Of a DNA stretch of 48,932 nt, positions 32,317 to 34,439 are shown piece by piece (positions within the stretch are counted from its first letter, which is position 1; each line of letters starts with the position of its first letter). The position numbers and the translations under genes are program-made. This DNA comes from a virus (taxonomy: Duplodnaviria; Heunggongvirae; Uroviricota; Caudoviricetes). Below the pieces are notes generated by a model that was not told the DNA's origin, searched no databases, and was given only the letters and a program-made list of their open reading frames with translations. The stretch lies in IMG/VR virus record IMGVR_UViG_640753024_000009; one strand, 5' to 3'.

Positions 32317-33123
32317 ATGGATATTAATGAATTTCCACCGGGAGTAATCGAACATCTTGGCTGGTATGTCTACCGCCTGATTGACCCGAGAGATGGCAGT
32401 ACGTTCTACGTAGGGAAAGGGAAAGGTAATCGTGTCTTTGCCCATATGCGTGGTGAGGTTGCTGCAGTGGATGATGATGATGAGTTACTGAGTAACAAAC
32501 TCAAACAACTTCGGGAGATCAGATTAGCTGGTCTTGAGGTTATCCATGTTATACATCGGCACGGTATGGCTGAAGAAAAAACGGCTTACGAAGTTGAAGC
32601 AGCTCTCATAGACGCCTATCCCGGCTTGACTAACATCATGAACGGTGCTGGCAGTAACGAGTTCGGTGCTGCACACATCAAAGAATTAATCGCTACGTAC
32701 CAACCTGAAACAATTACGTTCCAACATAAGACCCTAATGATATCGGTTAACAGAAGCTCAAAGGATATTGACCTCTATGATGCTGTACGTTTTAGCTGGC
32801 GTGTCAGCCTTGAACGCGCTCGTAAGGCTGAGGTCATACTGGCGACAGTAAGAGGAATTGTGAGGGGTGTATATATCGCAGATGAGTGGCTCAAGTCTAC
32901 CCGTGAGAATTTTCCAGAGATACCCTCATGGGATGCGGATGATGAATTTGAAGCTACGCAAAGTTCCCGCTTTGGGTTCCGGGGTAGGGCTGCACCTCCT
33001 GAGATTACACAGCTTTATTTAGGTAAGAAGATCCCTGATGATCTCAGAAAAAAAGGTGCTATGTCTCCTGTGAGATATTCTCCCGGATTTGATTTCGGAA
33101 TGGAACGGGATTTTAGATCGTAG
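32317..33123 (+). CDS. GIY-YIG nuclease domain protein (268 aa from ATG at 32317)
   Basis: N-terminal [29 protein letters not shown] matches the GIY...YIG...R core; track ORF starts at an upstream TTG; C-terminal about 170 aa unassigned. Confidence 0.6.
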
Positions 33124-33203
33124 CCAATATATGGCAGTAATGAATATTTCGGGGATCGTGTTTGCTGCGGTCATGGTTACCATTATTAGTGTGCTGAACT
33201 GAA

Positions 33204-34439
33204 ATGACTAAGCGAAATAAAACCCCAAAATTTAACTTGGACAAAGCTCGCAAAAAAGAGATTCGCGCAGCCTTAACCAGCGTGGGTATGACCCCTCAAC
33301 ATGATGGCTGGGCGGATTTGTTTATGTACGCTTATACAGATGGCAGCAATTTAAACGGTTTGCAATTGGCCAAAGCCTTATCAGTGCATCCAACACTGAT
33401 AAATGGTTTATCGCGCGGCATCAAATTAAAACCAGAGAAAGCGCTCTCCAAAAAACGACCATCAAAACCTACGCTGGCCGATAAACGCCGCGAGGCCAAA
33501 CAGAAGGTCAATATGGGCTGGGAAGCGCTGATTCGCACTATGCCTATGCAAAAGCCAGGCGCACGCAAAAACCCTGAAACAGAAGCCCTTTGGGAGAATG
33601 CCCGTCGCCGTGGCACGTCCCAGGCCAGCACGCCAGCATTTACGCCGACAATCATCCCGCGCAAGGTTTCCGCTCAAATCAACACCGAATTACCAGGCCT
33701 GCAATCAACGCAGATGGAAACACCGAAACGGTATGATTCTGTGAGCATGACATCAAAAGTTACGACAAAGCTGGATAATCGCGTCCTACAGGATTTTCTG
33801 GCAAAACACATTCCAGCCAGCCAGCGTCGTGATGTTGAGCTTTATATCCACAAACACCAGCATGAAGCCACCACGACCATTGAACTGGTGCAGCGGTACC
33901 TGGATGATCAGGAAGAAAAGCAAATCATCCGAGAAGCCGAGAAGCTGGCCGACGTTGTTCCGGAACTGGTAGCCGATGATCGAATCATCATGTCGCAGGA
34001 AGTAGTGGTCGTCGTGGAGGAAGAGAAACCCGCGCCCGCGCTTGGCCAACCTGTCAAACTCCACAGTACCCGAACCGCGCAGCGCATCGTTGAGCAGCGC
34101 GACACGACGGCGCATATGCAGTTTGTTGAATGGGTATGGAATAATTTTGCTGGCCGTTGCGCGGTGACTGGCTGGCAGAACGGCGAACGATTGCAAGCGG
34201 CGCACATTGAGCCAGCTACCTCAGGCAATTTTAGCGCTGATAATGGCCTGTTGTTGACTCCAACGATACACGACTTACTAGACGCAGAGCTGATGGCCGT
34301 CAACCCTGAAACAATGACCGTACATTTTGCCCCAGGTATTGAGCTCGGCGCGATGTTTGAAGGCAAAGTGATTGAGCCTAAATTATGGCCGCTGAACATG
34401 GCCGCGTTGGTTAAACGCTGGAAAGAACGGAAATTCTGA
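33204..34439 (+). CDS. HNH nuclease domain protein (411 aa)
   Basis: C-terminal CAVTGWQNGERLQAAHIEPATSGNFSADNGLLLTPTIHDLLD fits an HNH motif; basic N-terminal 300 aa unassigned; 80 bp downstream of the GIY-YIG gene on the same strand. Confidence 0.6.
   Translation: MTKRNKTPKFNLDKARKKEIRAALTSVGMTPQHDGWADLFMYAYTDGSNLNGLQLAKALSVHPTLINGLSRGIKLKPEKALSKKRPSKPTLADKRREAKQKVNMGWEALIRTMPMQKPGARKNPETEALWENARRRGTSQASTPAFTPTIIPRKVSAQINTELPGLQSTQMETPKRYDSVSMTSKVTTKLDNRVLQDFLAKHIPASQRRDVELYIHKHQHEATTTIELVQRYLDDQEEKQIIREAEKLADVVPELVADDRIIMSQEVVVVVEEEKPAPALGQPVKLHSTRTAQRIVEQRDTTAHMQFVEWVWNNFAGRCAVTGWQNGERLQAAHIEPATSGNFSADNGLLLTPTIHDLLDAELMAVNPETMTVHFAPGIELGAMFEGKVIEPKLWPLNMAALVKRWKERKF

Follow-up and report, generated by a model that had tools for sequence, protein, structure and literature searches.

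Two neighbouring nuclease genes in a prophage hotspot

The IMG/VR virus record IMGVR_UViG_640753024_000009 (48,932 nt; the whole stretch is called the window below) contains two nuclease genes, gene 1 at 32317-33123 and gene 2 at 33204-34439. An earlier note on this DNA, made from the sequence alone, had described them as co-directional GIY-YIG and HNH genes lying 80 bp apart. We verified both open reading frames (ORFs), which are on the + strand, as well as an intergenic gap of exactly 80 nt, and profile searches back both nuclease motifs with scores over the Pfam cutoffs. The Escherichia coli SE11 chromosome is 100% identical to the window in the two stretches compared (32000-34600 and 26000-38000), and RefSeq likewise annotates both coding sequences in SE11. 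The genes are situated in a hotspot (approximately 27956-35174) that forms the variable site of a lambdoid prophage family between an ORF6N antirepressor gene and a DUF1367/Q module, such that replication and antirepressor genes lie on one side and the Q antiterminator module on the other. The flanks of this hotspot are common to approximately 600 E. coli genomes at 90-95% identity. Related prophages carry other cargo there, namely an ImmA/IrrE protein (LS4) or a SMEK protein together with a methyltransferase (ECO21). The GC content steps from 34-35% in orf220 and orf459 to 44-50% in genes 1 and 2, which is consistent with cassettes of different origin.

Homologous loci used in the comparisons are cited by number: L002 is from E. 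coli UTI89, L003 from Citrobacter, L004/5 from a metagenomic island, L006 from a lambdoid prophage, L007/8 from a defence-island-like region, L127/8 from a prophage end beside icd, and L031/L045 from a related island.

Gene 1 belongs to the CMoRE/PD-T4-3 family

Gene 1 encodes 268 amino acids (aa) from its ATG, or 283 aa from an alternative TTG start at 32272. Judged by its sequence, it is a member of CMoRE/PD-T4-3, an already known enzyme family. The PADLOC model PDLC04031 (PD-T4-3) matches the protein over its full length (E 5.7e-138, residues 1-256 against profile positions 1-254 of 256), and the gene falls in phrog_5356. The structure of the CMoRE enzyme encoded by E. coli APEC O1 (PDB 9U7U) aligns with 258 of the 268 residues at approximately 94% identity (E 9e-164), followed by that of the O157:H7 enzyme (9U75, E 4e-151). 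CMoRE is a single-gene type IV restriction system, sufficient alone, which forms a tetramer and binds 5-hydroxymethylcytosine (5hmC) through its C-terminal domain (PMC12923530). It cuts 5hmC or glucosyl-5hmC (5ghmC) DNA at CN11/N9G and restricts T2, T4 and T6 by approximately five orders of magnitude, not by abortive infection (PMC12923530). A 48%-identical homologue shows modification-dependent cleavage in vitro and in vivo (PMC12366544), and CMoRE/PD-T4-3 activity has been described in a native clinical host (bioRxiv 10.1101/2024.12.20.629700).

The nuclease core of gene 1 corresponds to Pfam LEM-3_GIY-YIG at aa 28-111 (32398-32649; E 6.5e-13, 49 bits against a cutoff of 27). Tyrosines Y17, Y19 and Y31, which form the GIYxY-YIG motif distinctive of the N-terminal CMoRE domain (PMC12923530), lie at or just upstream of the start of this core and read as intact in the sequence (WY17VY19R ... 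FY31VGKG). An acidic loop, D52-D53-D54-D55-E56 (32470-32484), corresponds to the published loop between helices 2 and 3, which autoinhibits the active site and whose 4A mutant loses specificity and is toxic (PMC12923530). Gene 1 has one extra Asp here, and the resulting one-residue shift makes its R81/V93/L97/Y128 equivalent to the published R80/V92/L96/Y127, of which Y127 contacts the 5-hydroxymethyl group (PMC12923530). All functional residues named in that publication are present. The C-terminal modification-sensing domain (approximately aa 125-258, 32689-33090) aligns throughout to solved CMoRE. Since the alignment is complete and the named residues are kept, this half of gene 1 is the known 5hmC/glucosyl-5hmC sensor. 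The earlier note had given each protein a large unassigned domain and proposed domain prediction of these regions; the description fits the N-terminus of gene 2, which stayed without assignment, and fails for gene 1, where the structure of the domain has been solved and its ligand is known.

In comparison to the CMoRE/PD-T4-3 proteins of ECOR68, APEC O1 and O157:H7 (9U7U, 9U7Z, 9U75 and 9U8D), gene 1 shares the tyrosine motif, the acidic loop, the tetramer-interface residues and the 5hmC-contacting Tyr. It is also prophage-carried, and the family elsewhere consists of a single gene. Apart from the extra Asp, it differs from the solved enzymes by a 10-residue C-terminal extension, the result of a later stop codon, and from other CMoRE genes in directly preceding another nuclease gene. 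By analogy with the assayed enzymes to which it is approximately 94% identical, gene 1 is expected to cleave 5hmC/5ghmC DNA and to restrict T-even phages. The C-terminal domain would bind a flipped-out 5-hydroxymethyl- or glucosyl-hydroxymethyl-cytosine, the N-terminal GIY-YIG domain would cut between two modified sites, at a set distance, and the acidic loop would keep the enzyme off ordinary host DNA, so that incoming T-even phage DNA would be destroyed without killing the cell.

The two genes come from separate cassettes

CMoRE DNA is present in 119 complete E. coli genomes. In 114 of these, UTI89 and 113 others, the match is confined to 32187-33128 of the window, at 89% identity, and only the remaining five carry the HNH gene beside it. 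In UTI89, CMoRE stands alone near ssrA, at a prophage end. Within IMG/VR, 121 stretches encode CMoRE relatives (79 loci were fetched, 74 of which reach at least 1.5 kb downstream of CMoRE), and the HNH gene accompanies them in three contigs, all with the same SE11-type island. The L031/L045 island has the same 268-aa CMoRE subtype and no HNH gene. Conversely, four lineages (L004/5, L006, L007/8 and L127/8) have the HNH gene without CMoRE.

The DNA homologies define the units involved. The CMoRE cassette, a mobile unit that comprises a conserved upstream region and the gene, covers 32184-33128 on the + strand by homology to stand-alone CMoRE loci. Homology to the UTI89-type, stand-alone locus stops at 33128 and homology of the L127 type starts at 33129. 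The second cassette (33129-35180, + strand), 91.6% identical to L127 5380-7657, is truncated and its left end abuts the CMoRE cassette. From 35175, homology to LS4-type prophages without all of these genes resumes.

In its complete form, the HNH cassette begins with a gene for a FUSC_2-like membrane protein, followed by the HNH gene itself, a gene for a small secreted protein with repeats and, last, one for a lipoprotein of 186 aa. The membrane protein (150-153 aa, FUSC_2-like with a Pfam E of 1.1e-9) is intact in L127/8 and L004, where its stop codon lies 1-2 bases before the HNH start, and is frameshifted in L006 and L007. In the window, the 3′ end of this membrane gene makes up the 75 nt that precede the HNH start. 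What is left of it, by homology to L004 and L127/8, is a hydrophobic mini-ORF of its last 23 codons at 33131-33202 on the + strand (MAVMNISGIVFAAVMVTIISVLN, then the stop). The TGA of this relic falls one base before the HNH ATG, and the resulting stop-start overlap, TGAAATG, is preserved in all loci compared. The small secreted gene (L127 6830-7045, L003 9219-9454, L004 9403-9858) encodes a signal-peptide protein of 53-132 aa in which TIGGTTY-NNG-type repeats vary in number. The window has lost this gene at 34571-34600, apparently by fusion of the similar 5′ ends of this gene and the lipoprotein gene. The lipoprotein gene (34571-35131, + strand, lipobox LSGC), last in the cassette, is intact and conserved with HNH in Citrobacter and L127/8. 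In L125, a 56%-identical homologue of the lipoprotein is encoded 1.5 kb away from the gene of a distant HNH relative, which hints at a real HNH-lipoprotein family link. Apart from this lipoprotein lineage, the small proteins encoded downstream of HNH in different loci are not homologous and share only signal peptides. The HNH gene is thus a survivor of a four-gene cassette; the gene that preceded it is gone here, presumably together with the HNH promoter.

The same CMoRE-HNH-lipoprotein block, approximately 3 kb at approximately 91% nucleotide identity, occurs in a prophage of Citrobacter freundii (L003), where it sits elsewhere, beside DinI and tail fibre genes; no further case of the two genes together was found. 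The junction is the same, which indicates a single fusion event that then spread.

Taken together, the co-occurrence counts and a junction that cuts into an older gene indicate that the two genes are neighbours and not a system. We reject an obligate two-gene system on these counts and on the junction anatomy; the genes came to lie in tandem through recombination and do not form a designed module. We consider it probable that two unrelated nuclease cassettes were joined by recombination in the accessory hotspot of an SE11-type lambdoid prophage: CMoRE, which stands alone, and an HNH gene that is the remnant of a four-gene unit and likely encodes an active nuclease. An apparent new two-nuclease system thereby resolves into a solved type IV restriction enzyme and an unrelated neighbour. 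The value of this is mainly in annotation, and the case illustrates the stacking and erosion of defence cassettes in prophage accessory hotspots.

Gene 2 combines an HNH_2 nuclease domain with a novel N-terminal region

Gene 2 encodes a 411-aa HNH protein of the rare family phrog_23050, as established from its ORF, Pfam and PHROGs. Pfam HNH_2 (PF13391) matches aa 319-367 (34158-34304; E 2.6e-8, 34 bits against a cutoff of 21), and the isolated C-terminal fragment scores 36.7 bits against the same model. With its preceding helix and the C-terminal tail, this His-Me finger domain extends over approximately aa 290-411 (34071-34436, + strand). The catalytic or structural residues are H334, N347, H356 and D360; across the HNH family the two histidines and the aspartate are invariant and N347 is nearly so. 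A search with the family profile returned a single relative in the PDB, the EVE-HNH type IV enzyme VcaM4I (6YEX, E 3.8e-9), with a match that spans the catalytic core and the preceding helix. The four residues of gene 2 align with H224, N241, D250 and D254 of VcaM4I, of which H224, D250 and D254 have been validated by mutation (PMC7897488). The HNH_2 family also includes the type IIS enzymes HphI, AlwI and BbrI (PMC5714182). By its sequence, gene 2 most likely encodes an active endonuclease that cuts DNA.

The N-terminal region is basic and mostly predicted to be disordered, contains a conserved short motif, and leads through a helical segment to the C-terminal DNase. AlphaFold2 (AF2) modeling of the full-length protein gave a mean predicted local distance difference test score (pLDDT) of 53.6, with a moderately confident helical segment at aa 190-250 and long, low-confidence basic and acidic linkers. 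The one confidently predicted N-terminal part is a small four-helix domain at aa 11-70 (33234-33413, + strand); aa 1-85 modeled separately reached a pLDDT of 74. This domain has no recognisable fold relative. On the basis of the model, it could bind DNA, with no supported fold assignment. An XRE-type helix-turn-helix at aa 45-70, an impression from the sequence, was not supported by profile, PDB or AF2 searches and is not claimed here.

Pfam assigned nothing to three N-terminal fragments of gene 2 or to one of the homologue P0003. NCBIfam and PADLOC did not match the first 290 residues, PHROGs returned only families of unknown function, and phmmer against the PDB gave no usable match for the N-terminal region. 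An exhaustive phmmer search with aa 1-312 against 1.84 billion representatives found five sequences, three of them the family itself or fragments of it and two remote relatives. A profile search of 5.8 billion clusters found 18, about a dozen with N-terminal similarity, which makes the family very rare. Scanning genome contigs with the HNH family alignment yielded no confirmed relative, and literature searches on the protein accessions and on FUSC with HNH returned nothing relevant. Gene 1 is already known. Gene 2 falls in a known class of nucleases, of which it is an uncharacterised member, and its N-terminal region is novel.

The ratio of nonsynonymous to synonymous substitution rates (dN/dS) was 0.21-0.32 for full-length gene 2, 0.09-0.20 for the HNH domain and 0.24-0.36 for the N-terminal region. 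The set includes pairs without the membrane gene; against L127 and Citrobacter the value was 0.25-0.29. The HNH gene is under purifying selection in both halves.

Distant HNH relatives of 354-544 aa, which share the N-terminal motif LPG..S.Q.ENPR.Y, occur in L122-L126; L125 also holds a second HNH gene, of the PF01844 type. The same HNH_2 subtype, with approximately 40% identity over the last 115 residues, is found in 232-284-aa proteins of virulent phages. These are encoded by early small genes of Salmonella (7-11/SeKF_80) and Pantoea (Nafs113) phages (L133 2165-2863 and L134 1970-2824), and their N-terminal parts differ from that of gene 2 and are also without assignment.

Comparison of gene 2 with characterised HNH enzymes

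The modification-dependent EVE-HNH and SRA-HNH type IV enzymes (VcaM4I, TagI) resemble gene 2 in the HNH_2-type catalytic domain, including the preceding helix, in the arrangement of a non-catalytic N-terminus followed by a C-terminal HNH domain, and in their mobile or defence contexts. In VcaM4I, a linker and sensor gate the HNH domain; their removal yields a toxic protein, and the isolated HNH domain is a non-specific, toxic nuclease (PMC7897488). By analogy, the 290-residue N-terminal region of gene 2 probably gates or targets its HNH domain. The differences are that gene 2 has no PUA, EVE, SRA or YTH sensor, that its N-terminal 290 residues are helical or disordered with no homologue outside the family, that it has the canonical second His (H356) where VcaM4I has D250, and that its ancestral operon includes a membrane protein. 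The type IIS HNH_2 enzymes (HphI, AlwI and BbrI; His-Me finger group 6) belong to the same PF13391 nuclease family and have their specificity located outside the catalytic domain, which we count as a feature shared with gene 2. Unlike these enzymes, gene 2 has no adjacent methyltransferase in the loci examined, is much smaller than is typical of type IIS enzymes, and contains no recognisable recognition domain.

The role of the HNH protein

Domain type, selection signal and genomic company together suggest that the HNH protein most probably serves the prophage as a second nuclease for defence or exclusion, independent of CMoRE. Its homologues adjoin RES, GmrSD_N, Cap4-nuclease and DUF3800 genes. 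As a conserved, intact, restriction-type protein that has lost its membrane partner, it is a candidate for a new defence activity or specificity domain. A broader proposal, which we regard as tentative and rather doubtful, is that HNH and its ancestrally coupled FUSC-like partner constitute an undescribed anti-phage nuclease system, that its fusion behind CMoRE provides a layered defence of two differently targeted nucleases under one promoter, and that an approximately 85-nt repeat bracketing every cassette of these islands (described below) may build such arrays.

Several observations weigh against a defence role for an independent HNH cassette. No modification-sensor domain (PUA, EVE, SRA, YTH, ASCH, winged helix or DUF3427) is recognisable in gene 2. 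PADLOC v2 gave no full-length match to a defence system, only generic HNH models (E 5.7e-5 and 0.017). The family is tiny, which is unusual for a successful defence gene. The relatives in L122-L126 lie in tight co-directional operons of small genes within integrative elements (AlpA, DUF1233, KilA-N, SLT) that are not obvious defence islands, and the occurrence of the subtype in early regions of virulent phages makes a phage-selfish role possible. With two of the four cassette genes lost here, HNH may not work as it did ancestrally. Finally, the fused arrangement has been transferred to and kept in Citrobacter, which is compatible with, and not proof of, a joint benefit of the two genes.

The genomic company of HNH could also be read as that of a toxic effector, either a membrane-controlled executioner of abortive infection or a bacteriocin-like exported DNase. 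In the latter variant, the disordered N-terminus would serve uptake, and the secreted and lipoprotein neighbours release or protection. The ancestral operon couples HNH to a multi-pass membrane protein and then to two signal-peptide proteins, and in other lineages, too, HNH is closely followed by an unrelated secreted protein or lipoprotein. The order of a basic, disordered N-terminus with a conserved motif, a helical segment and a C-terminal DNase recalls nuclease colicins, and the toxicity of the isolated VcaM4I domain would fit as well. However, we found no candidate cytoplasmic immunity gene and no match to a toxin-family profile in Pfam or NCBIfam, and colicin lysis proteins are far smaller than the lipoprotein. 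Moreover, the membrane partner is lost or frameshifted in four of the six lineages examined (the window, Citrobacter L003, L006 and L007/8). Since HNH stays under purifying selection where the partner is lost, the membrane protein is not an essential antidote or controller. We therefore regard a toxic effector as unlikely.

The earlier note had also proposed a two-nuclease anti-phage module. The anti-phage part is borne out for gene 1 through its CMoRE/PD-T4-3 membership, while the pairing is not. A cooperating pair, in which HNH would cover phages or escape mutants beyond the reach of CMoRE, or both enzymes would act on the same DNA, finds some encouragement in the co-directional spacing of 80 nt with no predicted terminator, in the conservation of the block at a different position in Citrobacter, and in a type IV enzyme being the solved protein most closely related to the HNH domain. 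Against this, CMoRE suffices alone (PMC12923530), the pair occurs in only 5/119 E. coli genomes and 3/121 viral stretches with CMoRE, and HNH is found without CMoRE in four lineages. In addition, the junction truncates the upstream gene of HNH itself, marking a secondary fusion, and the E. coli and Citrobacter copies represent one event. We give this cooperation little credence.

Finally, HNH might be inert, left over from a decayed cassette and hitch-hiking behind CMoRE, as would suit the destruction of two of the four ancestral cassette genes, the poor Shine-Dalgarno context, the lack of an own promoter and the extreme rarity of the family. This is very improbable in view of a 411-codon ORF that is intact and of the same length as in the complete cassette, the retention of all catalytic residues, the dN/dS of 0.25-0.29 against L127 and Citrobacter, and a relic ORF that keeps the stop-start overlap needed for coupling.

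Upstream region and expression of the fused genes

The CMoRE cassette becomes homologous to UTI89 and Citrobacter at 32184-32187, within hairpin 2 of the third copy of the inter-cassette repeat. Between this repeat and the start codon lies a sigma-70-like site, TTGTCA-N17-TATTTT (32256-32284, + strand), which we take, from its match to the consensus, as the putative CMoRE promoter. The earlier note had named a candidate promoter upstream of gene 1; a site is present and its surroundings are conserved, with 130 nt around it shared with the CMoRE upstream regions of UTI89 and Citrobacter, but the consensus match is weak and the sigma-70 scan found 7 sites in the region against 4.3 expected. A perfect palindrome, TTGTCAATTGACA, at 32256-32268 overlaps the -35 element and is conserved upstream of CMoRE in UTI89 and Citrobacter; it may be an operator.

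The Shine-Dalgarno context of the HNH start codon is poor, and the gene was not found to have its own promoter. No terminator is predicted between CMoRE and the HNH gene immediately behind it, which suggests that the two are co-transcribed, probably from the CMoRE promoter. Translation of HNH would then occur by coupling to the 23-codon relic ORF.

A sequence resembling the 3′ half of a tRNA in reverse complement (TGGTCGGCACGAGAGGATTTGAACCTCCGACC) is present just upstream of CMoRE in UTI89 (L002, approximately 7915-7975) and in Citrobacter (L003, 6790-6821). The adjoining CMoRE is the stand-alone cassette in UTI89 and the fused cassette in Citrobacter. ARAGORN called no tRNA gene at these sites, and the sequence may be a relic attachment site.

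An inter-cassette repeat and the homing-endonuclease question

A two-hairpin repeat of approximately 85 nt occurs in three copies in the window (29228-29318, 30429-30510 and 32133-32217, + strand, by sequence comparison); the last is the repeat copy 3 that had been reported just upstream of gene 1, now verified. Its consensus is AATGTCCGCTyyTCGCTCACAGCGGACCTTCAG-N-GTCCGCTTCGTGCCAGnAGCGGAC. Further copies are found in L008 (2931, 5986, 9298 and 13199), L007 (5991 and 14712), L010 (11616), L031 (3117, 4016 and 5245) and L127 (4548). We found the repeat in 541 of 5426 complete E. coli genomes and, by exact match to its core, in 26 IMG/VR contigs. Compensatory changes affect five of the nine pairs of hairpin 2. 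Hairpin 1 retains its pairing mainly through G-U-type changes, which pair only on the + strand. Between cassettes the repeat always has one orientation, whatever the direction of the genes (the window, L007, L008, L010, L031, L127 and others). Rfam applied to 27000-37500 did not contain it, giving only a chance SNORD102 match below threshold, and the sequence has no annotation and was not found in the literature searched.

Cassette homology breakpoints fall in or at this repeat, so that recombination at the repeats explains cassette mobility better than homing does. The repeat is a better candidate than the nucleases, to which the earlier note had tentatively linked cassette movement, and it may be a recombination, regulatory or RNA-level element that organises or builds these islands. 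As such, it may explain how islands of this kind are assembled.

Free-standing homing endonucleases, which would spread, along with adjacent cassettes, by cleaving a cognate site in genomes that lack them, were the other origin suggested for one or both genes. GIY-YIG and HNH are classic homing-endonuclease folds, and the phage homing enzymes (GIY-YIG Seg/I-TevI; HNH Mob/I-HmuI) are from the same two superfamilies, phage-borne and mobile. The cassettes are clearly mobile as well, and related HNH_2 proteins (232-284 aa) are encoded among small early genes in virulent phages of Salmonella and Pantoea, a typical setting for such enzymes. However, both genes belong to other nuclease subfamilies: gene 1 to a biochemically defined family with a base-flipping sensor and no sequence-specific DNA-binding domain, which recognises a base modification and not a sequence, and gene 2 to HNH_2, the restriction-enzyme branch of the His-Me fingers (HphI, AlwI, BbrI and VcaM4I; PMC5714182). 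Pfam detected no homing-type DNA-binding module (NUMOD, IENR1 or other IENR, AP2, helix-turn-helix) in either gene. Moreover, neither gene interrupts or adjoins a constant or conserved target gene. They are found in many unrelated contexts, including a nin-like region, a prophage end by DinI, positions by ssrA and by icd, and chromosomal islands, and presence/absence polymorphism at one fixed site beside a conserved target gene was not seen. Comparison of the insertion site in related prophages, as the earlier note had suggested, showed the same site holding other cargo and no fixed homing site. The cassettes lie between intergenic repeats, and the coincidence of their breakpoints with the shared repeat is enough to explain the shuffling by recombination. 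Homing is thus ruled out for gene 1 by the published CMoRE biochemistry and structure and unlikely for gene 2 by its subfamily, the absence of DNA-binding modules and the absence of a constant target site, which leaves the proposal as a whole highly improbable.

Other observations in the island

A 459-aa protein without family match, encoded at 30612-31991 on the - strand, is 94% identical to the product of L008 13396-14757, which lies approximately 4 kb from the HNH homologue of that locus. The DNA shared with L008 around this gene runs from repeat to repeat (30436-32162 in the window) and behaves as another repeat-bounded cassette.

At 35584-35615, the first 32 nt of an LprI-family gene are a perfect match to a 32-nt spacer that E. 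coli strain 005008 carries in an annotated CRISPR array resembling type I-E. Several other genomes with the same BLAST match to this region align at approximately 93% over 44-45 nt, including flanking repeat bases.

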